Positions 25,372 to 64,000 of a stretch of DNA of 64,000 nucleotides are shown in pieces. A program made the translations under genes and the position numbers. The notes under the pieces were generated by a model. The model did no database searches and had not been told where the DNA came from. It saw only the letters and a program-made list of their open reading frames with translations. Within the stretch, counting starts at the first letter, position 1. Each line of letters starts with the position of its first letter. This DNA is from Acidobacteriota bacterium (GTDB lineage Bacteria > Acidobacteriota > UBA6911), in assembly GCA_963664705.1 (NCBI GenBank), contig OY761556.1, positions 6,336,001 to 6,400,000 on the forward strand, in the 5' to 3' direction.

Positions 25372-26550
25372 ATGGTGACTCGTCAATTAGTTCAGGATGG
25401 TTGGGTATCTGATCCCATCCGCACACGGCACGGGACCGTATATAAAATCCGTTACCGTGTCCCGGCCGCGGGAGGAAAGTTCAAACATAAGCAGGAAACA
25501 CTCTATGGTCTTACTGGGAAAAAGGAAGCAAAGGGTGTTCTTAATGAGCGGCTGCAACAAGTCAGCAGCATGAACCTGGAAGCCGTTGGTCTAACATTCA
25601 GGTCTTTCATGGACAATTATTGGAAACCCTATTTGGACAGGAAGCAAACCAAGCCGTCAACGGTGCGTGGTTATCAATCTGTTCTTGATAATCATATCCT
25701 GCCATTTATGGGTGACATGATCTTGACGGAGATCGTTCCACTCAATATTGAGCAGTTGCTTCAGATCAAAGCCAAAGCAAAGTATTCCTCAAGGACAATG
25801 CGGAATATCATTGTTCAATTAAACGGGATTTTTAACTTAGCCGTGGATAATGATCTGATCAGCCGCTCTCCTGTCCGTAAACGGCACAAGCCAGTGTGTC
25901 ATAAAAAGGAAAAGCCAGTTTGGTCAGCGGAGCAACTTCGAAAAATTCTCGATTCAATTCCGATTGAGTTTCAGTGCGTATTTCTTTGTGTGGCCTTAAC
26001 AGGGCTGCGCCTGGGCGAACTACTTGCCCTGCAATGGAAATATGTTGATCTAGTTTCGAAGAGACTCCGTGTAGCACATAGCCTATATAAAAGGCAGTTG
26101 GTTGCTCCAAAAACCGAATCGAGTGCTAGGACTATTGCTTTGGGAGAGGCCCTTAACTCGGCACTAATGGAGCATAGGATGAGTTCTCGTTTCACTGGTC
26201 CCGAGGACTTTGTATTTTGTACACAGGAAGGGGCGTCACTGAATCCGGATGTGCTTCGAAAAGATGTCCTCTATCCCGTGCTGGATCGATTGAACATTCC
26301 ACGGCCAAAAGGTGCAGCGGGATTTCATTGCTTCCGGCACTCGGCTGCAAGCCTTATCAACGCCGAGACAGGGAACCTGAAAATAACTCAGAAGTTTCTT
26401 GGGCATTCAAACGTCAGTACGACAGCTGATATTTACACTCACACGTCCGAGGACATGGAGCGGGAAGCTGCTTCTGCCTTGGAACGATCCATTTTTGGAA
26501 GCTGTTCGCGATCTGTTCGCGATACGGAACCGCGAACAAGAATTCAGTGA
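25372..26550 (+). CDS. Tyrosine recombinase / phage-type integrase
   Basis: Catalytic residues intact: TGLRLGE (R), APKT (K), HCFRH, LGH, IYTH (Y). Confidence 0.95.
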   Translation: MVTRQLVQDGWVSDPIRTRHGTVYKIRYRVPAAGGKFKHKQETLYGLTGKKEAKGVLNERLQQVSSMNLEAVGLTFRSFMDNYWKPYLDRKQTKPSTVRGYQSVLDNHILPFMGDMILTEIVPLNIEQLLQIKAKAKYSSRTMRNIIVQLNGIFNLAVDNDLISRSPVRKRHKPVCHKKEKPVWSAEQLRKILDSIPIEFQCVFLCVALTGLRLGELLALQWKYVDLVSKRLRVAHSLYKRQLVAPKTESSARTIALGEALNSALMEHRMSSRFTGPEDFVFCTQEGASLNPDVLRKDVLYPVLDRLNIPRPKGAAGFHCFRHSAASLINAETGNLKITQKFLGHSNVSTTADIYTHTSEDMEREAASALERSIFGSCSRSVRDTEPRTRIQ

Positions 26551-26633
26551 ATTCACATTTTGTAATGAAAGGCCCAAGGTGCTTCCAACTTGCTCGATTT
26601 TAAGTGTTTATGGGATTTATTTCGGGTGAGTTT

Positions 26634-26683
26634 TGGTAGCGACGGGTGGAATCGAACCACCGACCTTGGGGTTATGAATCCCT
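26634..26683 (-). tRNA. 3' half of tRNA-Met(CAT); att-site duplicate, not an intact tRNA
   Basis: Minus strand reads AGGGATTCATAACCCCAAGGTCGGTGGTTCGATTCCACCCGTCGCTACCA: anticodon loop TTCATAA, T-arm GGTTCGATTCC, CCA end; no D-arm upstream. Confidence 0.85.
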
Positions 26684-26874
26684 AACCTGCCTGAACGTCG
26701 TACTAAACGGTACTAAAACCTCCTATAAATCCTGGATTCGGCGGAATTCTTTTAGGACGGTTTCGGCTCCAGTAGGATCCAGAACCGCCACACAACCGTC
26801 ACACTCGCTGCTTTTGGCTAAAAGCCATCGGCTGCGCCTGTGACAAGTTTGTTCCGACGAATCGAGGATACAAA

Positions 26875-27681
26875 ATGGCATATACATTCACGCTCACTAA
26901 TGCAAAGGGCGGCTGCGGCAAAACCACAACAGCTCTAAACCTAGCAATTTGCTTTGCAAAGGCAGGGTATCGTACCCTTGCCATCGATTTGGATCAACAA
27001 GGAAATTTGAGTTCCGGCCTTGGCGTTGATCTCAACCAATTGAACATGACGGCGCATCGTTTGCTGATCAACGAGGCGCCGGAGATTGGCAAGTATTTGG
27101 TTGAGGTTCGTCCCCAGCTGAAGCTCCTGCCCAATTCCATCGATATCGAAGCCGACGATCTCCTGGAAGCCAAGAAGGTCAACCGTGAGGTTCTCCTTCG
27201 CCGGCAACTAAAGCCGATCAAGGCTGAGTTCGATGTCATCCTGATCGACACTCCGCCGGCAATGCGGGCAGCTACCGTCAATGCCCTGGTTGTTGCTGAC
27301 TCCGTAATTGTCCCGATCGATTCATCCAGCTTCGCTTTGCTGGGAATGACTCAGCTGCTCAAGACCATCGCCGCTATCAGTGAGACACATAATCCCAATC
27401 TGAAGATCCACGTGTTGACAACACTGTTCAACAAGAGACAAAACCTGGACCGCGTCATCAGACAGCAGGTTGAGGAGTTCTTCGGCCAGAGCCTGGTCCT
27501 GGAATCAATTATTCATCGATATGTCGGCGTTGCAGAAGCAACCGCAATGAAGAAAGGAGTAGTAGAAAACACTGCTGCTACATCCGCCACGTTCGACTTC
27601 ACGAAGCTCTTCAACGAACTCAAAGAGGAAATGGATCATGAAAAAGAGAGACATGCAGCAGCTGAAAGCATCAATCGCTAA
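26875..27681 (+). CDS. parA: ParA/Soj family ATPase
   Basis: KGGCGKTTT deviant Walker A, IDLDQQGN and IDTPP motifs. Confidence 0.92.
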   Translation: MAYTFTLTNAKGGCGKTTTALNLAICFAKAGYRTLAIDLDQQGNLSSGLGVDLNQLNMTAHRLLINEAPEIGKYLVEVRPQLKLLPNSIDIEADDLLEAKKVNREVLLRRQLKPIKAEFDVILIDTPPAMRAATVNALVVADSVIVPIDSSSFALLGMTQLLKTIAAISETHNPNLKIHVLTTLFNKRQNLDRVIRQQVEEFFGQSLVLESIIHRYVGVAEATAMKKGVVENTAATSATFDFTKLFNELKEEMDHEKERHAAAESINR

Positions 27682-28849
27682 GGATTTGGTACAAGGCCAG
27701 GGAGACAATTCCGCGACTAGAGACTTATTAAAGCTGTACGTTCCGCTGAATGGAATCGTCAGCAAGCCAGAGCCCGAAATTCGGCACGAAATGCCTGTGG
27801 AAAACTGCCTGGCACCACGTGCCACCGTGGCACAGGACGACATTCCTGCATGGCACGGTGCCACCGTGGCACCTCATGCTACCCTGGCACCACATGCCAC
27901 GGTAGCACGATATGCTAGGGTGGAAGGCGAATTGCGCGTTCCGAATACCATTAGTTTCCGCCTCTTTCCGACACTCGATCCATTCGCAAAAGCCGTCTAT
28001 TATCAGCTCTATTTGGAATCATATGGTTTCCACAGCGATATGTGTCTGGTTAGCCTTCCGACATTGGCGAAATTGGTGCTGATGTCCCAGCGAAAGGTTC
28101 AAAACACAATCAGTTATCTCGAATCGCGTGGATTAGTAAAAAGGCTTGGGTCCAGGCTAGGTGGAAAAGATCGCGGCAATTATTATCAAGTATTTGTTCC
28201 GGAAGATATCGGTCCCATAAATCCAAATATTCCGCCAGACAACTATGATGAAAATGAAACCGACTGCATGGCACCTCGTGCCACCCTGGCACCACGTGCC
28301 AGCCTAGCACTCCATGCCACGGTGGCACGAGGTGCCACCAATCAAAATGATGATGATGATGATATAAAAATAAAAAATAAATCATCATCATCAAAAGGCA
28401 ACGACATTGGCAGCGAGTTTGTGGAAAACCACACTTGCGCGGCTGCGCCGCGAGAGAAAGAAACGGCGAATTTTCTGCTTGTGCGCGACGCGTATGAAAA
28501 AGCCACCGGGAATCGCTGGAATCAATCGGATTCGGAAGCCTACAAGCAAAACTGCATCGCCGATGTGCCGCCGGCCAAAATCGTCTCGGTTTTGGAGACC
28601 GTAGTTCGTCGGACGCCGACAAAGATCAACAGCTTCAAATATTTCGTCAAGGAGATCATCGCTCAGCCGGATCCGCGCAATCGCTCCTGGCAGAAAAAGC
28701 GCCTTGAGAGGATCGTTCACAAAATCCGGGATATTTCGGTTGGGCGCGGCGACTATTCAATGGCCGATTTTGTGGAGGACGTCAAATGCAGCTGCGCTCG
28801 CGAAGGCGTTGTATTCGAAAACGATCTGTTTAACGAATTGGTGAGTTAG
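27638..28849 (+). CDS. Putative HTH replication-initiator protein with internal repeats
   Basis: Winged HTH SLPTLAKLVLMSQRKVQNTISYLESRGLV; downstream of parA; APxATVA repeats. Confidence 0.55.
   Translation: MKKRDMQQLKASIAKDLVQGQGDNSATRDLLKLYVPLNGIVSKPEPEIRHEMPVENCLAPRATVAQDDIPAWHGATVAPHATLAPHATVARYARVEGELRVPNTISFRLFPTLDPFAKAVYYQLYLESYGFHSDMCLVSLPTLAKLVLMSQRKVQNTISYLESRGLVKRLGSRLGGKDRGNYYQVFVPEDIGPINPNIPPDNYDENETDCMAPRATLAPRASLALHATVARGATNQNDDDDDIKIKNKSSSSKGNDIGSEFVENHTCAAAPREKETANFLLVRDAYEKATGNRWNQSDSEAYKQNCIADVPPAKIVSVLETVVRRTPTKINSFKYFVKEIIAQPDPRNRSWQKKRLERIVHKIRDISVGRGDYSMADFVEDVKCSCAREGVVFENDLFNELVS
27810..27916. repeat. 18-bp quasi-palindromic tandem repeats (GGCACCACGTGCCACCGT-like), cluster 1
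   Basis: Several degenerate GGCAC-nn-(G/A)TGCC units; TGTGGAAAA at 27796-27804. Confidence 0.8.
28239..28440 (+). repeat. Origin-like module copy 1: 18-bp repeats, (TGA)n/(TCA)n inverted repeat around an A-rich spacer, DnaA-box match
   Basis: Four units at about 28270-28340; AT-rich core at 28341-28396; TGTGGAAAA at 28420-28428. Confidence 0.75.
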
Positions 28850-35793: not shown

Positions 35794-37065
35794 TTAGGCA
35801 CCGACGATGATTGTCCAGATCATCGCTGCCGTCAGAGCCACCATGATAATGCTCGTTGCGATTGTAATAATGTTGGCAAGCCTTGTGTTCCGGTATTTCC
35901 CCATCAGACCTTTTTGATTCACCAGGCGAAGCATGAAATATAGTACAAAGGGCAGCAAGATGCCGTTGGCCACCTGTGAGAGCAAAATCAGCTTAATCAG
36001 TGGAATGTGTGGGATCAGCACGACTCCAGCGCCGAAGATAATTAGAGCAGTGTAGATGGTGTAGTATGTCGGAGCTTCTGAAAACCTCTTATTTATTCCG
36101 GACTCAAATCCAAGTCCCTCGCATATGTTATAGGTTGTAGCTAACGGTAAAATCGCAGCCGACATCAACGCTGCATTTATCAGTCCCAGCGCAAACAATA
36201 CGGATGCGAATTGACCGGCCAACGGCTTGAGGGCAACTGCCGCATCGGCGGCATCCCCAATATTATGGATGCCATTAACGTGCAATGTTGCGCCACAGGA
36301 CACGATGATAAAAAAGGCCACGATGTCCGTGACGAGACAACCTATAATCACGTCCCATTTGCTCCATCGATATTGATCGGCGGTGATGCCCTTTTCCACG
36401 ATTGAGGCCTGCAGATAGAACTGCATCCAAGGAGTAATCGTCGTACCAACCAATCCGACTACCATCACGAGATACTCCGAAGAACGAGTTGTCCCTTCGG
36501 GAACAAATGTGTCCCGGATAGCAGCCATCCAGTTCGGATGCGCCATAATGGCTGACCCGGCATATCCAAAATAGATGAGCGAAAGAAACAACAGCACTCG
36601 TTCCACAGGCTTGTACCTGCCGAAAACGATGAGCCCCCAAACCGACAATGCGCCGATTGGCACAGTGATGTATTTGCTCAAACCGAAAATGCCGAGTCCC
36701 GAAGCAATCCCTGCAAATTCGGCGGCGATATTGCCGAGGTCGGCCAAGCCGAATATGAGCATAGTTAAGAAAGTTGCACGGAACCCGAACTCCTCACGAA
36801 TCAGGTCAGACAGGCCTTTTCCGGTAATTGCGCCCATGCGCGCAGCCATCTCCTGCACAACAATGAGTGCAATCGTGGTCGGAATAAGGGTCCACAAGAG
36901 CGCATAGCCGAATTTCGCTCCCGCCTGCGAATACGTCAGAATGCCTCCGGGATCATTATCAACATTGGCGGTGATGAATCCCGGGCCGAGTATTGCGATA
37001 AATGCCAATATCCTATAACGGAGGATTTTGGTAGGTTTTAGAATCCTGTTTTGCAGTTCAGACAT
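35794..37065 (-). CDS. NRAMP-family divalent cation (probably Mg2+) transporter
   Basis: GPGFITANVDNDPGG and GTTITPWMQFY motifs; RBS GGAGGAG; M-box upstream. Confidence 0.9.
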   Translation of the reverse strand: MSELQNRILKPTKILRYRILAFIAILGPGFITANVDNDPGGILTYSQAGAKFGYALLWTLIPTTIALIVVQEMAARMGAITGKGLSDLIREEFGFRATFLTMLIFGLADLGNIAAEFAGIASGLGIFGLSKYITVPIGALSVWGLIVFGRYKPVERVLLFLSLIYFGYAGSAIMAHPNWMAAIRDTFVPEGTTRSSEYLVMVVGLVGTTITPWMQFYLQASIVEKGITADQYRWSKWDVIIGCLVTDIVAFFIIVSCGATLHVNGIHNIGDAADAAVALKPLAGQFASVLFALGLINAALMSAAILPLATTYNICEGLGFESGINKRFSEAPTYYTIYTALIIFGAGVVLIPHIPLIKLILLSQVANGILLPFVLYFMLRLVNQKGLMGKYRNTRLANIITIATSIIMVALTAAMIWTIIVGA

Positions 37066-37353
37066 GATCTCCTCCGTCAGAATGCGCACTTTGAGGAGTC
37101 GGGGGCCCTTATGGAGAAACTGCCTCATCCCTCGCATTCACCGCACGAATCTGCGGCAAATGCTGCGGGCGAAGCGATATGGGGTATCAGATCACCAGCA
37201 GATCTTCCGCAGAAAAATTCTCACTACAGCCTCTACTCGGAGGCTCGTCTTTTTCTGATCTCATATAGCTTTCTGGAGGCAGATAAGAAGCTGGGAGGAG
37301 TTGTCACTCCTCCGCAGCGGAGAAATGGCTCAATGCCTGAAGGGTATCAGCCG

Positions 37354-37526
37354 GATTCCCCCACTGGTTTAAGCTTCAGCACCGCGCACCGTGAGAGGTC
37401 CGAAGACCTCAGCCACCTTAGGAAAACCCTTAACCCGGGAGTTCCTGTTCTACCCTAATCCGGCATCTTTGGATACCATAGGGCAGTGGCGTGTTTGTAC
37501 GTGGGAGCCTCGCTTACCGAGGATCC
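37354..37526 (-). ncRNA. M-box (ykoK) Mg2+ riboswitch
   Basis: Minus strand CCTCGGTAAGCGAGGCTCC...ACGCCACTGCCC...TCCAAAGATGCC...GGGTAGAACAG...GTGCTGAAGCT follows the ykoK consensus; upstream of NRAMP. Confidence 0.88.
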
Positions 37527-37654
37527 TTACAATTCGCTGAGCCTTAAAATGCATGATTTAAGACCCGTGAAAAAAATAGGCTTGGATTCAGGACATGTCA
37601 AGCAGTATGCATCTTTTTGAGGTACTGGGTGTCATTCTGGCGCTGCATGCCTGC

Positions 37655-37768: not shown

Positions 37769-38617
37769 TTAAGCAAGCTTGGTGGCTTGAGCTTGAAAAA
37801 ACTCCGCGTTCCAAAGCTCCAAGGATGGCAATTCATTTGATTTTACGAACCTGCGAACGTCCTCACGGGCTTGTTTCCAATCAATGGCCTTGATTCGTTC
37901 ATTCAATCGTTCGAGACACCAGGACCTATCCGCTTTGACATTCTTTCCCTTCCAAGGACCTGTTTGATTTATTGCCGAGGAGAGCAATTCATAATTCGCC
38001 GGAGTCCGGCGAGCGGTATACCAGACAAAATCGTACCAATCCCGCCCCTTCAGATATTCACGGCATAGCAATGCATGAAGCTTGCCGGCGTAGAGGCTTG
38101 ACAGATCAAATACGCAGACGGCCGAAAGGAAAGGAAAGTCCACGTGCCTGGTTTCGAAGGTTGCACCTTCCGGCGGATTCGTATCCACTTCAACCTTGAT
38201 CCTCATCTTGCGCATCGGACCTGATATCGGTCTGAAATTTAGTTGGAGCAGTTTGCCGAGCGAATCATCCTTTACAAATGCTTTGCGCACTGTCTGTCCG
38301 ACCTTCGAACGGTCATCCATCTGGAGTTCAAATCCGTAGGCCGTCAGTTCCTTTTTCGCTGTGTCGAGATAGGGCTGCAATTTAAATGATGAGTCCGGTT
38401 CTTGCAGGGCAAAATCAAGGTCTTCAGAAAAACGGTTCAATCCGTGGAAAATTCGTAGACAGGTGCCGCCCTGAAATCCGGCCTTCTGGAAGAAATCCGT
38501 TCGTCCCAGTGCTGCCAACAAAATCTCCTGGGTGATTTCGCGGAGGGCTTGTTCTTCCTCAAGACTCGAACGGCAGTTATATCCGTTCAGCCGATCCTGG
38601 ATTATCCGTACACTCAT
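37769..38617 (-). CDS. abiEii: AbiEii nucleotidyltransferase toxin (type IV TA)
   Basis: FQGGTCLR...RFSEDLDF, K..ALL.R and RDWYD motifs. Confidence 0.9.
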   Translation of the reverse strand: MSVRIIQDRLNGYNCRSSLEEEQALREITQEILLAALGRTDFFQKAGFQGGTCLRIFHGLNRFSEDLDFALQEPDSSFKLQPYLDTAKKELTAYGFELQMDDRSKVGQTVRKAFVKDDSLGKLLQLNFRPISGPMRKMRIKVEVDTNPPEGATFETRHVDFPFLSAVCVFDLSSLYAGKLHALLCREYLKGRDWYDFVWYTARRTPANYELLSSAINQTGPWKGKNVKADRSWCLERLNERIKAIDWKQAREDVRRFVKSNELPSLELWNAEFFQAQATKLA

Positions 38618-39276
38618 CTCTTCAGGTCCTTTCGCAATCCTTTAAGAAATCGCCGAACTCGCTGGGAAGAATAGTTGTTGATCAAAAGTTCAACGATCTC
38701 TGAGTCGATGCCTGCCAGCGAGTTTTCATCCACTCGCAGGCTTTCGATGACCGGCTCTGCGGATGTCCAATCAAGTCTGTGCGCATAGACGTAATCGGCC
38801 AGGGCTTTCAACGGAGATGCTATCAGGAAGCTTTCGCCGGCGAGAAAACTTGGTTCATTCCCATCCTGCTTTTCAATGCGAGTGACTTCTGCATAGAAGA
38901 CCTTCTGCGGAATCCGCGTGAAACTGAAATGCCCGAGAGGCGTCTCAAATTCGCGGGCACGATCCATGGAGGCGCTTGTAATAGCGTATACCGCTTCGGG
39001 GATCCAACCATGGTACGACAATGAAGTTTCCAGGCTGATATAGCTGGGTCCATGGATTAACTGGGCGAATATCAGCGGGTCGGGCTTTCGTCGCAGATAC
39101 TTGGGGGCAAGGCAATAAAGCCCACGGTGGATCCGGATCACCTCATTCGATTTCAGAGCCCGTTTGAGAAGAGCGAATTGGCGATTTGACGTTCCGCCAA
39201 CCCACTGCGAAAGCTCCAACAGGGTAAAGGCGCCAGTATCTGATTTCTCCAGAACGGTTTCCGTCAAACTTTGCAT
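38614..39276 (-). CDS. abiEi: AbiEi antitoxin / transcriptional regulator
   Basis: RIHRGLY, PSYISLETSLSYHGWIPE and ASPLKALAD motifs; ATGA overlap with the toxin. Confidence 0.85.
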   Translation of the reverse strand: MQSLTETVLEKSDTGAFTLLELSQWVGGTSNRQFALLKRALKSNEVIRIHRGLYCLAPKYLRRKPDPLIFAQLIHGPSYISLETSLSYHGWIPEAVYAITSASMDRAREFETPLGHFSFTRIPQKVFYAEVTRIEKQDGNEPSFLAGESFLIASPLKALADYVYAHRLDWTSAEPVIESLRVDENSLAGIDSEIVELLINNYSSQRVRRFLKGLRKDLKR

Positions 39277-54528: not shown

Positions 54529-55230
54529 CTATCGACGCGCATTCCGTAACACTGAGGACATTTTGTCCGCCACATCCTTTGAAAGTCCGCTTTCCTGTAA
54601 GCGCTTTACCGCACTTTCTACGTCATACCGGATTCGCTTCAAAATCACTTCGCCATCTTCCCAAACGGCTAAACAGCCGCGCGGGTCGCCATCGGTAGGC
54701 ATGCCTAGGCTGCCGGGATTCACCACTGTCAATCGGCCAATTTTTCTTATAAATGGCCAATGAGTATGGCCAACAAACAGCCACTCTTCCTGATCTGATA
54801 GTTCTCCAACCGCAGCCAGCCATTCTGATTCAGAAGCATCGCCATTCAGATATTCAAAAAGAGGATCGCGCGGCGTAGCGTGTATCAGATGTAACGTAGC
54901 GCCTTCCGCCCGATAGATGGATCCGGCTGGAAGTGAACGCATATAGTCCATCGATTCCTGGCTTATCACTGAACGAAAATGAGAACGCGTGGCAATCGAG
55001 AGCGCATAAGAATTGGAAGAACTGCGGCAGTCAGCTCCGGTTGCCATCGCGAAATCATGATTCCCGCTGATGGCGGTTGCTTCTCTCTCTCGAACCCAGC
55101 GCACCGCCTCTTCCGGTGAAGCGCCGTAGTCCACTATATCCCCGAGAACCAGCAGATCATCGAATTGTTCATCGATGGACTGCAAAGCATCGATATTGGC
55201 GTGGATATCGGTAAGAATTAGATAGCGCAC
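54529..55230 (-). CDS. Calcineurin-like metallophosphoesterase
   Basis: DIHAN, GDIVDYG, GNHD, GHTH and NPGS motifs. Confidence 0.92.
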   Translation of the reverse strand: MRYLILTDIHANIDALQSIDEQFDDLLVLGDIVDYGASPEEAVRWVREREATAISGNHDFAMATGADCRSSSNSYALSIATRSHFRSVISQESMDYMRSLPAGSIYRAEGATLHLIHATPRDPLFEYLNGDASESEWLAAVGELSDQEEWLFVGHTHWPFIRKIGRLTVVNPGSLGMPTDGDPRGCLAVWEDGEVILKRIRYDVESAVKRLQESGLSKDVADKMSSVLRNARR

Positions 55231-55243
55231 CTGCGGGCCTCCT

Positions 55244-56452
55244 CTATTTCAAAATTCTAGGCATCAACGCGGGATCTTTCCGCACAGACATGAGCAACGG
55301 AATTGAGGCAAATTGAGACAACATTGAGAATCCTATTACCCACATCATCGAGAGTTCATAGAGATAACCCATGAGCGCGCTTCCCAAAAACCAGAAGATT
55401 CCATAACCGGTATTGAAGATGCCATATGCAGTGCCCCGCTTGTCGGCCGGAACAATTTCTGCAACAGCCGCTCTCATGACAGATTCCTGTGCTCCCATGC
55501 CCGCGCCCCAGAGAACCATACCAGTGAGACTCGTGAAAAAACCTCCAAGCAGAACCAGGGGTGCAAAGAATACCGACACAAGGACAGAAATAATCAGGAC
55601 GATGATACCCCTGCGGTCGAAAAGCCGTCCAAAAATCAATGCCGCAATAGCATCGACTCCCATCGCTACGGCATAGAAAATCGGAATCCAGTCGCGTGGA
55701 ACTGTAGCGGCCTTTTGGAAATGGAAAGCGATCAAAGGAAAATCCGCATAACCTGCCGCAACTAGAGCCATTGCCAGCACGTAGATCCGGAAAACCTTAG
55801 AGAGCCCTTCTGCCCGCAATGGCGGAGCGGCCGGTTCAAGGCTGCGAGGACGCGGATATAGCAGTGCTGCGGTTGCCAACACGCAAATTGCAAGTATTGC
55901 TGGTATGAGCAGGACAGCAAAACCGTTTCTGTAACTCCCCCTGAAATACAGAATTGCTGCCACGATAAGCGGTCCAAGTATGGCGCCGATCTGGTCCATC
56001 GCCTCGTGTAGAGCGAAGCCCCACCCGCGTCCCATTTCCGAGGTGGCATGGGACAGCATGACGTCTCGTACAGGAGTCCGCACTCCCTTGCCAGTGCGCT
56101 CGGCTATCATCAAAAGCGCTGCGGCTTGCCAACTGCCGGCCAGTGCGAGAAGCGGAACGGCAATCATATTTACAGCGTACCCGAAGATTGTTATTCCCCA
56201 ATATTTTCCTGTCCTGTCCGCGAAATAACCTGAAACCAAGCGCACGCAATAGCCGATCAATTCTCCTAGGCCTGAAACAAAACCAACAATTATGGCATTC
56301 GCACCCAAGAGAGCCAGAAACGGACCGGCAATACTGCGCGCGCCCTCATAGGTGATGTCTGCGAAGAGACTCACTGCCCCCAACAAAATGACAAACATTA
56401 CAGCGGGACGACGCACAGTATTTTGGCGGGCTTTGGATTCAGGCATATGCAA
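55244..56452 (-). CDS. MFS transporter
   Basis: About 12 TM helices; GYFADRTG, GRLFDRRG and RGTAYGIF motifs. Confidence 0.9.
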   Translation of the reverse strand: MHMPESKARQNTVRRPAVMFVILLGAVSLFADITYEGARSIAGPFLALLGANAIIVGFVSGLGELIGYCVRLVSGYFADRTGKYWGITIFGYAVNMIAVPLLALAGSWQAAALLMIAERTGKGVRTPVRDVMLSHATSEMGRGWGFALHEAMDQIGAILGPLIVAAILYFRGSYRNGFAVLLIPAILAICVLATAALLYPRPRSLEPAAPPLRAEGLSKVFRIYVLAMALVAAGYADFPLIAFHFQKAATVPRDWIPIFYAVAMGVDAIAALIFGRLFDRRGIIVLIISVLVSVFFAPLVLLGGFFTSLTGMVLWGAGMGAQESVMRAAVAEIVPADKRGTAYGIFNTGYGIFWFLGSALMGYLYELSMMWVIGFSMLSQFASIPLLMSVRKDPALMPRILK

Positions 56453-56471
56453 TCATCGGAACATATAATCG

Positions 56472-57755
56472 TTAGATCGGGGATTTAAACACGGCCGCGC
56501 TTCCAAGCTCTGCTTCAATTTCCAGGAGCCGGTTGTATTTCGCAATTCGCTCACTCCTGCAGGCAGAGCCGCTTTTGATTTGCCCCCCACCCATGGCAAC
56601 CGCAAAGTCTGCCATGAACGCGTCTTCAGTTTCACCGGAGCGATGAGAGATGACAAAGCCCCAACCGGCTTTCCTGCAGAGCTGAATCGCTTCTATGGTT
56701 TCCGTTACGCTTCCGATCTGGTTCAGCTTGATGAGAACAGCATTGGTCGACTTTTCAGCAATTCCGCGCGCGATGAATTTGGTGTTCGTTACATACAGAT
56801 CATCACCCACAATCTGAATTTTTGATCCCAGCGCGGCCGTATGTTCGCGGAAACCATCCCAGTCGTTCTCAGCCAGGCCATCTTCAATGGAGATCACTTG
56901 ATATTTATCGATCCAGGTCTTGTAGAGGGCCGTCATCTCAGCGCTTGTCTTTTTGCCCTGGCCGGACTTGGAGAGGTTGTAAACGCCGCCTTCGAAGAAT
57001 GAGCTGGCTGCCGGATCCAGAGCGATGCCGATATCTTTGCCGGGTTTATATCCTGCGCTCTGAATCGCCTCGACGATTACCTCGCAGGCTTCATCGTTGC
57101 TTTTGAGATTTGGCGCGAATCCACCTTCATCTCCCACGGCCGTGGCATACCCCTTTTTCTTGAGTATCTTCTTCAATGTGTGAAAGACTTCAGCGCTGTA
57201 GCGAAGTCCTTCGGCAAAAGTCGGAGCCCCGATAGGCATTACCATGAACTCCTGGAGGTCAACGCTGTTGTCGGCATGCTTTCCACCATTGAGGATATTC
57301 ATCATCGGCACGGGAACCTGAACGGCGCCGGGTCCGCCAAGATAAGCGTACAGCGGAAGATTGGCAGAAAGAGCTGCCGCGCGCGCCACAGCCATAGAGA
57401 CGCCGAGAATCGCATTCGCTCCCAAATTGGTTTTGTTGGGCGTTCCATCCAGATCAATCATGGCGCGGTCGATTTCTACCTGGAGGCTGGGATTCATACC
57501 AACGATTTTTGGAGCGATGGTCTTATTGACATTAGTTACAGCCTTTAGCACGCCTTTGCCGTCATAGCGTTTTTTATCATCGTCCCGCAGCTCGCAGGCC
57601 TCATTTTCTCCCGTGGAGGCTCCGGATGGCACGGATGCACTTGCGATTACCCCATTCTCCAGGGTCACAAAGGCTCGAAGAGTCGGATTCCCTCGTGAAT
57701 CCAAAATTTCCATGGCTCTAACTGCATTAATTTTTTGATTTCTCTTATGGCTCAT
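56472..57755 (-). CDS. eno: Enolase
   Basis: [35 protein letters not shown] and ERIAKYN motifs. Confidence 0.98.
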
Positions 57756-57810
57756 GATTTCTCCTTTTCGAATAAGGATCTCTCGGTCCAAAGCTATGCC
57801 GACAACGCGA

Positions 57811-59487
57811 TTATTGCAGCCTGATCGTGTTTTTCATCAATTCTATTTCTTCAAGACTTGTCCGGATCTCCTGCGAATCCGAACGTGTTGTCGAGAGCAG
57901 TGCTTCGATGGTCAGGATCTGTTCATGCACATTTTTCTCGGCATCGCGTTGCATTTTCAGAATTGCGTTATTGATATTCTCGGTCCACTGCGATGCTAAA
58001 CGTGACAGGTTCTTTTCAGTTTCATAGGGAATCCGATTTATGAAGTGCTTGTCCGCCCAGGACCGAAACAGCCACATCGGAATTACAAACCAGAGCAAGT
58101 CAGTGTTGAACATGAATAGGTTGCCTATCGCGATGTCTGGTATGGTTGGCCTCTTTAGCTCGATCTCGAACGGCTCAACAGAAAAGCGCATGCCTAGAGC
58201 CTGTTCGATATTGCCGGCAAGACGATCGCGGAATCCCTGTACTGCTCTCGTCAAAGTCTCACGTGCCTCCTCGAGGGAAGCAATAAACAGGTCTCCGTCT
58301 CTGAGAGAAATCTCCTTCATTTCACGCCGCATAGACTCATCGAGCCAGCCCTCGAATGCGCGGCTCAGATTCCAGAGGTTCGATTGCAGCCCGGACAGCT
58401 TTTCCCTAAGCTCTAGCGTGATCCGCTTTTTGATATCGGGTCTCAGTTCTTCCATCCGTTTCATGAGCCAGGGGCGCGTCCGGCCGGCGCATTCTGCTGC
58501 TAATGCCTGCAATTCCATCCGGACCGATTCATGGCTGGTCTTCTCGTTCAGGATTTGCATCTTGAGCCTGGACCTGTCAGCATCCATGCGCTCCGCAGCA
58601 GCCAGAGCCAGAGAAAGATATTCCGTGGCCTTACTGAGTAATGAACCAAATTTGAATTGGGCGATCTCATAACGGGTGGTATCGCTGTTCTCCACCAGTG
58701 GAAGCAAAAGCTCGTGGTCCAGTGTTAATTGCAGGTGCTCATAATCCTGACGTACTGAAAACGGCACGATCTTAAACTCGGAACCGAATTCCTTCATCAG
58801 TTCCGCGCGGATGAATTCCGTGATTTCTTGCCTCTCGCTTTCGGTCACCAGATCCGATTTTGTAAGTAGGATGACAATCTTCGGCGTGTAACCGAGCAGG
58901 GTGCGGATGAGTTCGACATCATGTTTGGACAGCGGAGGATCTACGCTGACGGTCACCAGTGCTAGTCCCACTTTAGGCAACCAATCCAATGCCATTTCGG
59001 TATTGTGCTGAAACACGCTCTCCAGCCCGGGAGTGTCCACAAATTGCAGGCAACGATAAGGCTTCAGCGAAGGCAACTCGATGGTAACCGAAGCGACCTT
59101 TTTCATGTTCATCGGGTTTTCAGCTTCGGAAACAAATAATTCTACAGATTCTAGAGGGACAGTCTCCGATTTGCCGCCGTAGTACTGAACTGTCGTCCGT
59201 TCTTGCGGGCTATAGCGGAGACGTGTGATGACTGCAGTAACCGGAGTCACACCGACCGGCAAGACAGATCTCTTGGCAAGCAGATTTAGAAGCGAACTTT
59301 TTCCCGCCTTGAACCGGCCGAAAACCCCGACATCGATCAGGTCTTCCGCCTCCAGAACTGATCCGCAGGCCTCCAAATTGGGCTGGATTGCAGAGAGAGA
59401 GTACTTCTCCTGAATGACTTGGATTCGTTCCAGGACATCTCTAAGAGTGCCGTTCGCTTTACCGATTATTTTAGGATGGGCCATCAC
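57811..59487 (-). CDS. Bacterial dynamin-like GTPase A
   Basis: G1 [10 protein letters not shown]2 GVTPVT, G3 DTPG, G4 TKSD; helical stalk and hydrophobic paddle ([11 protein letters not shown]). Confidence 0.85.
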
Positions 59488-59501
59488 TTAGTCCTGAAAG
59501 C

Positions 59502-59536
59502 AAAAACCCCACCTCGGAAATTCCCGGGCGGGGTTC
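59502..59536 (-). terminator. Intrinsic terminator-like hairpin in the leader of dynamin A
   Basis: AACCCCGCCCGGGAA/TTCCGAGGTGGGGTT followed by a T-run. Confidence 0.6.
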
Positions 59537-59578
59537 TTATTCTCAAACTATGCCCTACCCTGGTGTCGGTTGAGGTTC

Positions 59579-59628
59579 GGGTAGGAGTTATCAGGCCATC
59601 GGCCGGTTATCTGGCGAACTCCATCGCC
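59579..59628 (-). ncRNA. Fluoride riboswitch (crcB motif) 1
   Basis: GGCGATGGAGTTCGCC...TAACCG...CTGATAACTCCTACCC. Confidence 0.9.
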
Positions 59629-59679
59629 AAAACATCATCATAACAACGGCACTAATGCTGCGCAAGTCAGTGTGAAGGC

Positions 59680-60105
59680 TTAGCTCTTCACTATCAGTAC
59701 GCTGCAATGCGCGTGATCGCTGACACGGTCCGCCGTGTCGCCCAGCAACCGTCCCCACAATCCGGAGTGGTCGCTGTGACCAATGATGATCAGATCACAT
59801 TGCTTCTCGTCCGCCGCCATGACAATCGTTTTTGCGGGATGGCCCGAACGAGACTCGCATTCAATGGCAATACCGTACTGCTTTGCAATGGCCTCAACTT
59901 CCCCACGACGCTCTTTGAAGTATTCCTGCGCAGCTTCCGTCTCCTCTTCGAACTCCCCAGGCAAATCCGAGTAACGTGGAAGCGGCTCTCGAACCCAGAG
60001 AGCCGTGAACCTGGCGTCATACTCTTTAGCCAATATTGCGGCTCTTTGCAGAGCCTTTTTTGAACTGTTCGATCCGTCATAGCCCACGAGGATGTTTTTG
60101 AACAT
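59680..60105 (-). CDS. Universal stress protein
   Basis: ILVGYDGS, GHPAKTI and LLGDTADRV..HAHCSVLIV motifs. Confidence 0.93.
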   Translation of the reverse strand: MFKNILVGYDGSNSSKKALQRAAILAKEYDARFTALWVREPLPRYSDLPGEFEEETEAAQEYFKERRGEVEAIAKQYGIAIECESRSGHPAKTIVMAADEKQCDLIIIGHSDHSGLWGRLLGDTADRVSDHAHCSVLIVKS

Positions 60106-60112
60106 TTGTTCC

Positions 60113-61330
60113 TCACTTTCCGCTGGTTATCGGAGCCTTCGCGCTTTTACCATTGATTCTTCGAGTGTATGTAACGCCCCACTCGATCATCGTCTCGATC
60201 TTCGGTTGAAAGAGTTTCTGAGCGATAAGGGTCGGCACAAATGCGCTCAGAATGACTACTGTCACAAGAATCGTATATTGCTTCTCATCGATGATCTTAT
60301 TCTGAAGGCCGAAAAGTGCAGAAATCGTACCGAAGGTCAGTCCGGTTGCCATGAGCAAGGTGGTGTAATTCGCTTCCCGGGTGGCCATGTAAAAGGCCTT
60401 GGTCGATGGTCAGACTCCCAGAAATTTCGTTGCGAGCTTCAATCCCAGCAAAACCACAATTATGCCCAGCGATGCCCATAGTGCGGGGAGTGAAACGTAA
60501 AGACCGGCTTTTATGAAGTAGAACGGAGTGAAGATTGCGAAAGCGATACTGCGCATACGGTGCACCAGCGTTTTATCGCGAAGGAATACACCTGCCACTA
60601 CCAGACCGACCAGATAAGCCGGGAGAACCGCTTCACTCTTGGCGGTCGACGCGAGTCCCCCCAAGAAGAAAAGAGTGAGAAAGATGAACTTTACTTCAGG
60701 CTCACTGACGCGTGTCGCGCCGAATGTATCGATCAGGAGCCTCGTCCACTTTGGTAGGAACCATAATGCGATCGATAGAACCACAACGAAAACCACAAGC
60801 CAGATGTCGAATTTGGCGAATAGGGTACCAAGAGCAAGAACGGTTCCGAAATCCGTTATGAAGCATGCCGCCAGAATCGTTTTGCCGAGGGCCGTCTCCC
60901 CAAGCCCGCCCTCAATCATAACGGCATAAACAACCGCGACAGATGTGGTCGAAAGGGCTATCCCGGCGATCTGCGCCTGGTGCAACGGCCACCCCAGCAC
61001 ATACTGTGCGAATATCCAGACGAAAACAAACGGAAGCAGAAAAGAGAGGATACCGATCGTGAGGCTGGCGCGAAGACTGGAACGCAGAGAAGCGGGATCG
61101 ATCTCAGCGCCTGCAAGGAATGTCAATACGCCGCTTCCGAGCATTGCCAGAAAGTTGGTCCATTCTGTAGTCTTCAGGATGTGGTGTTGGGCGCCGAACT
61201 GAAAATTCCCTGCGATTACTCCGACAACAATTTCGATCAAAGCTACTGAAATACCTGTGCGAATCGAGACTAGGCTGGCAACGAAGGCCAGCGCCATCCA
61301 TATGGCGGCTACATACCAGATATTATCCAT
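60113..61330 (-). pseudogene. CPA2 cation:proton antiporter with a single in-frame TGA
   Basis: LSTTSVAVVY and ACFITD motifs. ORFs 60410-61330 and 60113-60388 share a frame; the TGA at 60410-60412 falls in KFLGV*PSTKAF. Confidence 0.82.
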
Positions 61331-61343
61331 GTTGTTCCTTGAG

Positions 61344-61703
61344 CTAGGTTCCCGTTTTTTCAGGAGGCACTTGCGAGGACCTGTAATCTATCACCTTCGC
61401 TTGTTCCAAAGTAACAAGGCCTCCGTTCATCATCCCATCGATTGCAGAAAGGAACGCGTTGATCCTCTCTTCAGTATCGATAATTTCAACAACCAGTGGC
61501 AGGTCCGACGAGATGTGCAGGGGCTTGGCCGCATGCAACCTGCTGGACAAACCATACCCCAAAGGACCTCGCAGCACGGTGGCGCCGGCCATATGCATTT
61601 GGCGGGCCTTGAGAACCAGGGCTTCATAAAGAGGTTGGTGCTTCCATCGGTCGCTTTCGCCAAGGAAGATTCGCAACAGCATCGCATCGTGTGGGAGATG
61701 CAT
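61344..61703 (-). CDS. DUF190 (PII-like, CrcB-associated) protein
   Basis: LLRIFLGESD, AGATVLRG..GYG and DLPLVVEIID motifs; RBS AAGGAG. Confidence 0.9.
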   Translation of the reverse strand: MHLPHDAMLLRIFLGESDRWKHQPLYEALVLKARQMHMAGATVLRGPLGYGLSSRLHAAKPLHISSDLPLVVEIIDTEERINAFLSAIDGMMNGGLVTLEQAKVIDYRSSQVPPEKTGT

Positions 61704-61845
61704 ATCAGGCTCCTTCATAAGAACAGATTCCTGGAACGCTATTCCCAATCCAAGCCCCGTCTGATTCTTCAGGTGAAGTATGCCGAAATTCTAGAAGAAA
61801 AACTGGTGCTGCCACTCACTTCATGCCGTATACCGAATTCGGGCA

Positions 61846-61948
61846 TAAAAAAACTCCTACCGAATCACGTTGGTCCGGGTAGGAGTCATCAGCTCTGATG
61901 ATTTCAGGCGGTTTCTCACCATCTGGCGAGCAGGCAAACTCCATTGCC
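61846..61948 (-). ncRNA. Fluoride riboswitch 2 with overlapping terminator
   Basis: GGCAATGGAGTTTGCC, extra hairpin CTCGCCA/TGGTGAG, AAACCGCC...GCTGATGACTCCTACC; terminator ACTCCTACC...GGTAGGAGT-TTTTTT. Confidence 0.9.
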
Positions 61949-62057
61949 TATAAACATTACTTTATACGTGTGCGGTTACCTTGCGCAAGCATCTTCACAT
62001 AGCAACATAAGGAACGATTAGGCTGAAGATTTATAATCTGATGCGAATTCCTCGCGA

Positions 62058-62087
62058 TTGACATGAACCCGTAGGCTTGGATAACCT
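62058..62087 (+). promoter_or_regulatory. Putative sigma70 promoter
   Basis: TTGACA-N18-TAACCT, 10 bp upstream of riboswitch 3. Confidence 0.45.
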
Positions 62088-62097
62088 AGTTCTCAGA

Positions 62098-62177
62098 GGC
62101 GATGGAGTTCGCCCTTAACCATCTCCATGAGATTGATGACTCCTACCTGGAAAACTGGCCGGTAGGAGTTTTTTTTT
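62098..62177 (+). ncRNA. Fluoride riboswitch 3 with overlapping terminator
   Basis: GGCGATGGAGTTCGCC..TAACC...TTGATGACTCCTACC; terminator ...GGTAGGAGT followed by a T-run. Confidence 0.92.
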
Positions 62178-62204
62178 ACGAAAATTCAAAACCGGCCGCA
62201 ATAA

Positions 62205-63863
62205 TTGGAGTCCACGGTGGCAGGTTTAAATGAGAATCACAAGCGCAGGCTGGTTGCCGCGTTTGGGCATGCCGACGAGCTGTTGACCCGGTGCCTCAAT
62301 GCCATGTCGCCTTCTAGACCCGGTCAGTTTTCACGTTATGTTCACGACATGTCCCCTTCTGATCAGCACTGGGTTGAGAGTTATATCGGAAAGATTCGCG
62401 AACAAATCTACCGCCTGATGCAGAGGTTTGAGGTGGAGGCGCCGTCTCCGTCTATAGCTTCGAGTTGGGCGCTGAAGACCGGCCTCATATCGCTTGACAT
62501 CTCTCTGGAAGATCTCTACCCCGATCAAATGAAGGGCTACGGGGCAATTGACGAAACGACAGCAGGCGAACTTACATGGACTCTTCAGGAAGTTCGGAGG
62601 CTCTTGAACCAGTTATTTGCTTTTCTGGCAGATGCGGGCGTAGCACAGGAAAAGCGGATACTTCAGCTCAAGGCAGAGCCGTCCCTCGTGAGCATGCTTC
62701 ATCAGTATGCGGCGATCATTTCGCGGCACCACCTCGTCGAGTTTCTCCCAACCCTGAACTCAATAACGCGCAAACTCGAGTCACACCGATATGAAATAGC
62801 GGTGTTCGGGCGCGTAAGCTCCGGGAAGTCTTCTCTGATAAACGAGCTTCTGGGTATTCAGTTGCTGCCGGTGGGTACCACGCCGATTACCGCTGTTCCA
62901 ATCCATATCGTGGCTGGACCCCAGCCGCGGCTACGCGTGACTTTCCTGGATCGAACGGTTGCAATGCGCGCAGAAGCTCTCCCGGAATTTGCGACTGAGC
63001 AGCTTAATCCGGCCAACTCAAAAGGTGTGGTTGGACTTGAACTTTCGGTCCCATCAAAACGCGTGCAGGATGGAGTAGCCTTTGTAGACACTCCCGGAAT
63101 CGCATCCCTCGCAACCACAGGTACAAAGCTTGCCTATGCTTACCTGCCGGACTGCGACTTTGCATTAGTCCTGGTTGACAGCCAATCGACTCTGGGACGG
63201 GATGACCTGGATATTTTGAGAGCGCTCCACACGTCTGGAATACCCTCAGCGGTTTTGATCACCAAATGCGATCTTCTTTCCCGGGAGGAGGTCGACCGGA
63301 CAGTGGCTTATACCCGCTCAGAAATAATGGAGCACTTAGGCCTTCACCCGGACGTGGTTCCTATCAGTTCAAAAGAATCCTGGGTTCCGGAGGTAAACAG
63401 ATGGTTTGATGCTACTATCCTTCCATTATTGGCACGTGCACGGGAATCACTCAACATTTCGACAAACAGAAAATTGCAGTCATTGCGCAATTCAATGCTG
63501 GCCACGCTGGAATCAAAAGCTCGACGCACAATGGGTGCCAGGAAAAACCCAAACGAATTGGAGAGCATCCTTCGTCCAATAGACGAAAGCCTATCGGCAT
63601 TTGCACAAAGCTGGGAAGAGAAACTCGAAAACATCTTGGATTGCACTTCGGAAATTGTTGCGAATGCATCAGTGCAAATGGCGCAGGAGCCGGGCCGTGA
63701 TGGTAAGAGCCGCACGGACATACTTACAAATTCGCTTTTACGTTCTGTAATGTCCCGATGCAATCCGTTCATGAGTGAATACGAAACGTTATCTCGAACG
63801 ATTGCCGATCAGCTTCATCTTCTGGCGACAGAGGCATCAACGCCAGAACAAATCCGACAATAA
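62205..63863 (+). CDS. Bacterial dynamin-like GTPase B (possibly truncated by a premature TAA)
   Basis: G1 GRVSSGKSS, G2 GTTPIT, G3 DTPG, G4 TKCD; the same frame stays open from 63864 to the window end. Confidence 0.82.
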   Translation: MESTVAGLNENHKRRLVAAFGHADELLTRCLNAMSPSRPGQFSRYVHDMSPSDQHWVESYIGKIREQIYRLMQRFEVEAPSPSIASSWALKTGLISLDISLEDLYPDQMKGYGAIDETTAGELTWTLQEVRRLLNQLFAFLADAGVAQEKRILQLKAEPSLVSMLHQYAAIISRHHLVEFLPTLNSITRKLESHRYEIAVFGRVSSGKSSLINELLGIQLLPVGTTPITAVPIHIVAGPQPRLRVTFLDRTVAMRAEALPEFATEQLNPANSKGVVGLELSVPSKRVQDGVAFVDTPGIASLATTGTKLAYAYLPDCDFALVLVDSQSTLGRDDLDILRALHTSGIPSAVLITKCDLLSREEVDRTVAYTRSEIMEHLGLHPDVVPISSKESWVPEVNRWFDATILPLLARARESLNISTNRKLQSLRNSMLATLESKARRTMGARKNPNELESILRPIDESLSAFAQSWEEKLENILDCTSEIVANASVQMAQEPGRDGKSRTDILTNSLLRSVMSRCNPFMSEYETLSRTIADQLHLLATEASTPEQIRQ

Positions 63864-64000
63864 GAATCTCCGAAACTTTCCGGGCTTCCATCCCCGGTAC
63901 TGTCTTTTCTGGATGGACTGGAGATTTCCGGTCCGGGTGTTTTCATGAATGTCAGTCAAGCCACACGCGAGAGGCACTTTCGCAGCGAGCTGAAGCAGGA

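Follow-up and report, generated by a model that had tools for sequence, protein, structure and literature searches.

The window analysed here, a stretch of 64,000 nucleotides (nt) from contig OY761556.1 of the Acidobacteriota bacterium assembly GCA_963664705.1 (positions 6,336,001 to 6,400,000), carries near its end two genes for dynamin-like proteins (DLPs), each led by its own fluoride riboswitch. Rfam cmscan gave three full-length matches to the fluoride riboswitch model RF01734, at 62089-62152 (plus strand, 54.9 bits), 59575-59637 (minus strand, 49.3 bits) and 61873-61957 (minus strand, 49.1 bits), and an RF01734 search of the whole 6.89-Mb, single-contig genome found these three and no others. 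On the minus strand the order is switch, DUF190, Na+/H+ antiporter, universal stress protein (USP), switch, DLP-A, enolase, MFS transporter and metallophosphoesterase. On the plus strand a switch is followed by DLP-B and then, just beyond the window, by a 229-aa AAA-type ATPase. The two flanking GTPase genes reached 75.9 and 81 bits with Pfam Dynamin_N (cut-off 27). The preliminary description of this DNA had named three crcB-motif aptamers, two of them in the leaders of different dynamin-like genes in opposite units, and a run of eno, MFS and metallophosphoesterase headed by the first dynamin. All of this was borne out: Infernal accepted the three aptamers at 49-55 bits (gathering cut-off 34), DLP-A on the minus strand and DLP-B on the plus strand both pass Dynamin_N, and the run behind DLP-A is as described.

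The switch that leads DLP-A, eno, MFS and the phosphoesterase (riboswitch A) has its predicted expression platform at 59502-59560 (minus strand). There, RNA folding indicated a switch strand (59553-59560) whose possible pairing partners are the 3' end of the aptamer and the 5' arm of a hairpin resembling a terminator (59502-59535), and this three-stem platform was kept in the leaders of six out of six relatives examined. We infer an ON/OFF logic for this platform from the folds, in which the fluoride-ON state was reproduced just in part under constraints. Predicted terminators with U-runs overlap two of the three aptamers, namely in the switch that leads DUF190, antiporter and USP (61847-61957, minus strand) and in the one that leads DLP-B (62089-62177, plus strand), where the 3' end of the aptamer runs into the predicted terminator 62139-62177. 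In an alignment of 28 aptamers, two of them from the window, 95.2% of the cells were paired (100% in the pseudoknot) and 6 of 12 pairs had changed on both sides, with 42-60% paired in slid controls; as the rows were Rfam hits, they lean towards the RF01734 structure. Generic promoter and terminator scans stayed at chance level (5 vs 8.1; 11 vs 9.9), long-stem terminators being missed by such scans. Judging from the aptamers and their modelled platforms, the switched genes are very probably induced by fluoride.

DLP-A (57811-59487, minus strand, 557-558 aa) is an intact dynamin-like GTPase by its Dynamin_N match, its motifs (G1 [10 protein letters not shown], G2 [10 protein letters not shown], G3 DTPG, G4 TKSD) and its predicted fold. 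The AlphaFold2 model (predicted local distance difference test, pLDDT, 84.2) consists of a G domain, a helical neck and a trunk, and its best fold matches in Foldseek were IniA (E 6.5e-18), BDLP1 and Cj-DLP2. The tip of the trunk is hydrophobic at about residues 451-480, a feature shared by 31 of 35 homologues of type A. When 126 GTPase regions were placed in a tree, it resolved this type A (GRFKAGKS), the type B of DLP-B (GRVSSGKS) and a control type, with a looser type C that mostly reads GQFKRGKS; as the root and the type C clade were unresolved, monophyly of the switched DLPs is not claimed. Where at least 3 kb of flank was available, near-duplicates included, a switch was found upstream of 40/43 type A, 11/11 type B and 21/23 type C genes. 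Motifs G2-G4 were intact in 73 of 76 type-A and in all 17 type-B proteins. Four DLP-B homologues (P0151, P0156, P0159 and P0161) have degenerate G1 or G3 motifs and are possibly non-catalytic partners.

DLP-B (G1 GRVSSGKSS) starts at TTG 62205 according to the open reading frame finder and at GTG 62217 as indicated by its relatives. From the latter start it runs on the plus strand to an in-frame TAA at 63861-63863; the proteins of its closest relatives go on beyond this point and reach 678 aa. After the stop the reading frame extends through 63864-64000 and past the window to 64262, with an overall identity of 83% to the relative P0123, and the stop removes about 130 residues of the trunk and neck helices; a complete DLP-B reading frame was not found in this strain. 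The antiporter (60113-61330, minus strand) is also interrupted, by a TGA at 60410-60412 that reads TGG in the relative L004, whose uninterrupted gene is 83% identical in DNA; Pfam Na_H_Exchanger matched both pieces, the short one below the cut-off. Logan contigs of runs X1 and X3 cover 57500-64000 with zero differences at either stop, and those of X2 and X4 cover the DLP-B stop region, again with zero differences. These four runs are one sample, possibly the source of this DNA, and one other sample covers neither stop site. An assembly error behind both stops is not supported, given that the contigs of the four runs of this one sample show no difference, and an alternative genetic code was set aside because the two stops differ (TAA, TGA) and other genes of the island read through. 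With DLP-B truncated, a working two-dynamin system is unsupported in this strain; read in this way, only the DLP-A arm is intact and the locus is a partly decayed example. Its intact relatives, locus L067 and protein P0123, are better test material.

The full-length DLP-B relative P0123 was modelled with AlphaFold2 (pLDDT 78.7). It aligned with Fzo1 over 315 residues (Z 24.8, root-mean-square deviation 4.4) and with IniA over 446 residues (Z 23.4, deviation 10.7), and in both cases the fold matches began at about residue 151, leaving the first 150 residues unaligned. This part corresponds to an N-terminal helical domain (NTD, about 150 aa; 62217-62660, plus strand), which was delimited by alignment and by the genome survey described below.

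A DLP-A profile matched 46 of 401 genomes of the phylum at E <= 1e-20, this genome (G000) included; just three candidates per genome were scored, so that some DLP-negative genomes may be misses. Leaving G000 out, 41 of the 45 DLP-positive Acidobacteriota genomes have an RF01734 match over the cut-off. Among DLP-negative genomes (100 sampled from 355; the tallies include the unpublished G024) the figure was 13 of 100, and the switches, where assignable, lead Fluc, CLC-F or an antiporter. In 26 of the 45 a same-strand switch was located no more than 400 nt upstream of the DLP match; with the limit set at 800 nt, 2 kb and 5 kb the count rises to 31, 38 and 41, the last figure being 39 when only matches over the cut-off are taken. 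The four misses are G053 and G112, which run off contig ends, G216, with a partial match, and G059, which has no switch. Families containing both kinds of genome numbered 11, and the switch rate was higher in the DLP-positive members in 10 of them and tied in one. Furthermore, DLP-positive genomes occur in 21 families, and in 19 of these at least one member bears a switch. No P value is given because related genomes are not independent. By extrapolation from the sample, about half of the switch-bearing genomes would carry such a DLP.

The same arrangement appeared in metagenomes. Among the best 80 of at least 560 loci, scanned with a model built from 28 Rfam hits, a same-strand switch was found upstream in 49, and in 35 of the 38 that have at least 3 kb of upstream flank, some of the matches being weak (19-30 bits); an earlier contig scan with a single-protein query had given 3 loci only. 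In plasmids, DLP-A gave no match at 1e-20 and a type-C query matched 10 records, 8 of which were examined. The two that scored best with the profile are located in fluoride clusters, and the other six, lower-scoring DLP loci have no switch (0/6). One of the clusters, on a Burkholderia multivorans plasmid, contains four switches, one of which stands before a hypothetical gene that is followed by a type-B DLP. This cluster (L285:299-10606) also includes an NADH-quinone oxidoreductase H-like gene, DUF190, pyrophosphatase, two MutS-annotated genes, NUDIX and enolase. A PF00350 search for DLPs of other types gave matches in 32 of 80 genomes, of which five, the highest-scoring ones that translate to long helical GTPases, were counted as true DLPs (four with GEFNxGKS); a sixth proved Era-like and the remaining 26 were short P-loop matches. 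None of the five genomes has a switch anywhere. Taken together, these counts strongly support a link between riboswitch and dynamin that is general, widespread and far from chance, and the survey thus found, in genomes and metagenomes, the association that the preliminary description had proposed to look for.

The preliminary description had also seen in the separate control of both partners an argument against chance, and had presented bacterial dynamins as often working in pairs. Separate switches before both genes do recur in relatives (L004, L006, L067, L071, L096 and L126), and two close relatives, L067 and L068, have no DUF190-antiporter-USP block, so that their switches for DLP-A and DLP-B are arranged back to back; the part that did not hold is the pair as such, which is broken in this strain. 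Actually, one DLP of at least 450 aa was found in 35 of 39 genome stretches and two in 4, on fragmented contigs, so that pairing is optional. In G261 and G138 a second DLP lies on another contig, and four queries detected no other DLP in the present genome.

Besides the GTPases, two partners recur with the switched DLPs, a small AAA ATPase and the unnamed NTD, which is either fused to DLP-B or free-standing. The ATPase that follows the DLP-B frame here (229 aa, 64266-64955 in window numbering, plus strand, past the window) has counterparts in 38/80 metagenome loci and 5/39 genome stretches. Free-standing NTD genes were found in 10/39 genome stretches and 13/80 metagenome loci; the members tested had no Pfam or NCBIfam match at the cut-off, and the NTD had no match under E 0.02 among PDB sequences. 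Atlas clusters resembling it are unnamed and come from Acidobacteriota, Chloroflexota and Thermodesulfobacteriota, and an Atlas match to DUF3907 at 0.80 is a lead only. An NTD profile matched 27 of the 401 genomes, and 20 of the 26 others than this one are DLP-positive. The six remaining genomes served as a forward test: in four of them (G014, G114, G156 and G363) the NTD is preceded on its strand by a switch at a distance of up to about 2.6 kb, and G109 and G190 are without one. Switch operons that include an NTD and no DLP in the 7-8 kb downstream lie at L264:8369-9655, L267:3745-6795 and L269:6011-7239. Other families noted around these clusters are FGE-sulfatase-like proteins (12/80 metagenome loci, L105:1640-2590 among the examples, some directly behind a fluoride switch), a family of about 290 aa without Pfam match that recurs after DLP-B (L126:2776-3654, L081, L096, L142 and L271), and a zinc-ribbon/HEAT-repeat protein near Fluc and type-C DLPs (L169, L176, L177, L178 and L181), in four cases between NTD and Fluc.

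In its switches and cargo the locus resembles the known RF01734 regulons, such as ppaC-uspA-eno-gpmA-crcB-orf5249 of Enterobacter cloacae FRM (PMC5533749; gene classes in PMC11139923). It has the same aptamer class and terminator-overlap logic, and it shares eno, USP and the Na+/H+ antiporter, plus a phosphoesterase, with these regulons (PMC5533749, PMC11139923). It differs from them in that no exporter is under a switch in this genome and that two switches lead dynamin-like genes. In the available parts of these sources 'GTPase' and 'dynamin' occur 0 times (PMC11139923), as does 'GTP' (PMC5533749); no GTPase is named among the genes under switch control in the available parts of PMC11139923, PMC5533749, PMC7266159 and PMC2864571, and 8 supplements of PMC2864571, one of them partial, contain neither 'dynamin' nor 'COG0699'. 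A literature search for fluoride riboswitch plus dynamin found no paper; its coverage did not extend to Baker 2012, Breaker 2012 and Additional files 1 and 3 of Weinberg 2010, where the switch-controlled genes are tallied. A predicted GTPase may appear in these tallies, and the association may already be listed without characterisation. On sequence grounds, the fluoride-switched DLPs join two known kinds, the fluoride regulon and the bacterial DLPs, by a mechanism that is predicted.

On the dynamin side, the best PDB sequence match of the DLP-A profile was the Campylobacter jejuni pair Cj-DLP1/Cj-DLP2 (PDB 5OWV; PMC6104087), at E 3.4e-21. Likewise, that pair consists of a shorter partner and a longer one with an extra N-terminal domain (PMC6104087). 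By analogy with the assembly domain of Cj-DLP1 (PMC6104087) the NTD might dock DLP-A, although it gave no sequence or structural alignment with the 5OWV_A assembly domain, the structural comparison being a whole-model search. Unlike the Cj genes, which lie side by side in an operon, DLP-A and DLP-B are divergent and separately switched, and the single form is common. IniA of mycobacteria, BDLP1 of Nostoc, DynA of B. subtilis, and CrfC and LeoA of E. coli have the same BDLP fold, made up of a G domain with neck, trunk and tip. The sequences are about 16-17% identical to IniA and BDLP1, and the scores for named NCBIfam families were far below their cut-offs for DynA (NF052648, 36.6-74.2 vs 1600 bits) and CrfC (NF007368, at most 32.6 vs 1146); LeoA (NF041922) matched type C only, at 16 vs 325 bits, and neither A nor B. 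We know of no fluoride or riboswitch control for IniA, BDLP1, DynA, CrfC or LeoA.

Since the pairing of switch and DLP recurs in most related genomes with such genes, protection of the membrane under fluoride stress is a likely role. In the specific form that we favour, in which the switched DLPs would protect the cytoplasmic membrane by cycling, GTP-driven tethering and sealing, we regard it as an even call. Fluoride, which enters as HF and acidifies the cell, is tied to the proton-motive force, and membrane-integrity genes are up-regulated under fluoride (PMC11139923). Acidification of the cytoplasm by entering HF drains the proton-motive force. Bound fluoride would stabilise the aptamers and, as folding predicts, prevent termination; and DLP-A would attach to the membrane by the hydrophobic tip of its trunk in order to remodel or patch it. 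DynA and IniA are stress-linked DLPs, DynA being a proposed suture of the membrane and IniA making cells tolerant to drugs (PMC6104087), and such remodelling would resemble what is proposed for both. DLP-A could act alone, with DLP-B or with a free-standing NTD, and enolase, antiporter, USP and phosphoesterase, induced along with it, would counter the inhibition of enzymes and the pH stress.

Several points weigh against this role. Outside the GTPase domain no hydrophobic tip is evident in DLP-B. DLP-B is broken here, frameshifted in L004 and a fragment in G271, which together with the broken antiporter makes the island look under weak selection. In G059 the DLP has no switch in 7.3 kb upstream, the switch on the Lichenicola cladoniae plasmid faces a divergent crcB gene and not the DLP, and the related genomes counted above are non-independent observations. 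In G014, G156 and G363 the NTD belongs to a fluoride operon with no DLP in 7-8 kb downstream, and being found in switch operons without a nearby DLP it may be a regulon member in its own right. Finally, these data do not distinguish membrane repair from other membrane roles.

Exporters bear on several of the alternatives. The Fluc gene of this genome is unlinked to the island and has no switch, and its CLC is without the CLC-F motifs that L189 and L203, two CLCs led by a switch, possess. Fluc was found in 27/45 DLP-positive and 14/35 DLP-negative genomes, so that the DLP neither replaces nor requires Fluc; a DLP substituting for Fluc and a DLP depending on it were both considered, and neither fits. 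A close CLC-F match was present in 1/18 of the Fluc-less DLP-positive genomes (G216) and in 0/21 of the Fluc-less DLP-negative ones. Neither Fluc nor a close CLC-F match was found with the queries used in 17/45 DLP-positive genomes, a figure to be read in this sense because many genomes are fragmented, and exporter-free genomes are also common among the DLP-negative. At C1:4560754-4561489 (L187) the Fluc of this genome lies with a second DUF190 gene, 69% identical to the island copy, and with no riboswitch.

Fluoride could act on the GTPase itself instead of calling for its activity. GDP with MgFx or AlFx would trap the G domains in a transition-state dimer, so that fluoride would lock the DLP on the membrane as a sensor or static, permeability-lowering coat and not as a cycling remodeller. 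Cj-DLP1 was solved with GDP.AlF4 (PMC6104087) and further GTPase GDP-AlFx structure entries exist, any GTPase induced under fluoride meets metal-fluoride complexes, and some DLP-B homologues have a degenerate G1 or G3 (64/69 keep DTPG). However, the catalytic motifs are all kept in most members, and lipid binding by Cj-DLP1/2 is independent of nucleotide (PMC6104087). We consider a locked state of this kind unlikely. Metal-fluorides inhibit GTPases, which would also fit a simple compensation where the ordinary job of the DLP is inhibited by fluoride and its amount is raised in response. Such reasoning is accepted for eno and pyrophosphatase in operons of this sort (PMC11139923, PMC5533749) and it fits the enolase, present here as a second copy, but it fits the DLP poorly because no other DLP was found in the genome, that is, no constitutive one to back up. 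With only about 5 of 80 other Acidobacteriota genomes holding any other true DLP, and the switched types almost only behind switches, compensation seems quite improbable.

Another role would be that of a helper of export or sequestration, the DLP organising Fluc channels or pinching off vesicles with fluoride or a metal-fluoride precipitate. In 11 of 39 genomes Fluc is in the fetched stretch, often in one run with DUF190 and DLP, and crcB adjoins the DLP in Lichenicola; against this, 18 of 45 DLP-positive genomes have no Fluc match, just G216 of them having a close CLC-F, which counts against the Fluc form of the idea, and the Fluc of the present genome is unlinked and unswitched. We find such a helper quite unlikely. 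The DLPs could also travel with a mobile fluoride island without any benefit under fluoride. In favour of this, the fluoride locus has two broken genes and belongs to a series of integrated elements, flanked by repeats of the tRNA-Met 3' end at window 26634 and about 65473. Nevertheless, the switch stands directly on the DLP gene in many gene orders and three divergent types, the family count given above holds across most of the families, and G179, a genome of one 2.3-Mb contig, has its DLP behind the sole switch found there and its Fluc elsewhere, all of which makes mere hitch-hiking highly improbable. Beyond the membrane protection that we favour, the switched DLPs and the 150-aa helical partner could form a third, exporter-independent route of fluoride resistance at the membrane, possibly with metal-fluoride locking the GTPase membrane-bound, and be present by extrapolation in about half of the riboswitch-bearing Acidobacteriota; this broader proposal is a doubtful one.

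Little is settled about what dynamins do in bacterial cells, and apart from Fluc and CLC-F there are few explanations of fluoride resistance. When a gene has a ligand-specific switch, the ligand tells which stress to apply, and therefore both questions reduce to a simple NaF experiment. Two further candidates for the fluoride regulon are the helical family without a name and the small AAA ATPase. The matter also bears on the engineering of microbes that release fluoride while degrading organofluorines.

The remaining genes of the two minus-strand units are of known families. Behind DLP-A lie the second enolase copy (56472-57791), 59.5% identical to the copy at C1:5419047, which is presumably the housekeeping one; the MFS transporter (55244-56452; Pfam MFS_1, 128 bits), with homologues in 8/39 genome stretches and 9/80 metagenome loci; and, as last gene of the unit, the metallophosphoesterase (54529-55230; Metallophos_2, 73.3 bits), with homologues in 24/80 metagenome loci. 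Upstream of riboswitch A are the USP gene (59680-60105; Usp, 120.9 bits) and, before the antiporter, the DUF190 (COG1993) gene (61344-61748; DUF190, 123.6 bits). The elements at tRNA-Met are in tandem, with three 3'-end repeats plus the tRNA (C1:6316667, 6362633, 6401473 and 6522610; window 25372-28849). An integrase precedes the repeat at 26634, and near-identical pairs of parA and an open reading frame of 403/407 aa lacking a helix-turn-helix follow the repeats at 26634 and 65473; the 39-kb element that bears the fluoride locus showed no integrase at its right end. The same island has an M-box (Mg2+) riboswitch at 37353-37528 (minus strand, 117.5 bits) upstream of a Nramp-family transporter (35794-37137, minus strand), as well as an AbiEii-type nucleotidyltransferase with an unnamed upstream partner (37769-39276, minus strand) beside a ZnuABC-like system and a TonB receptor.

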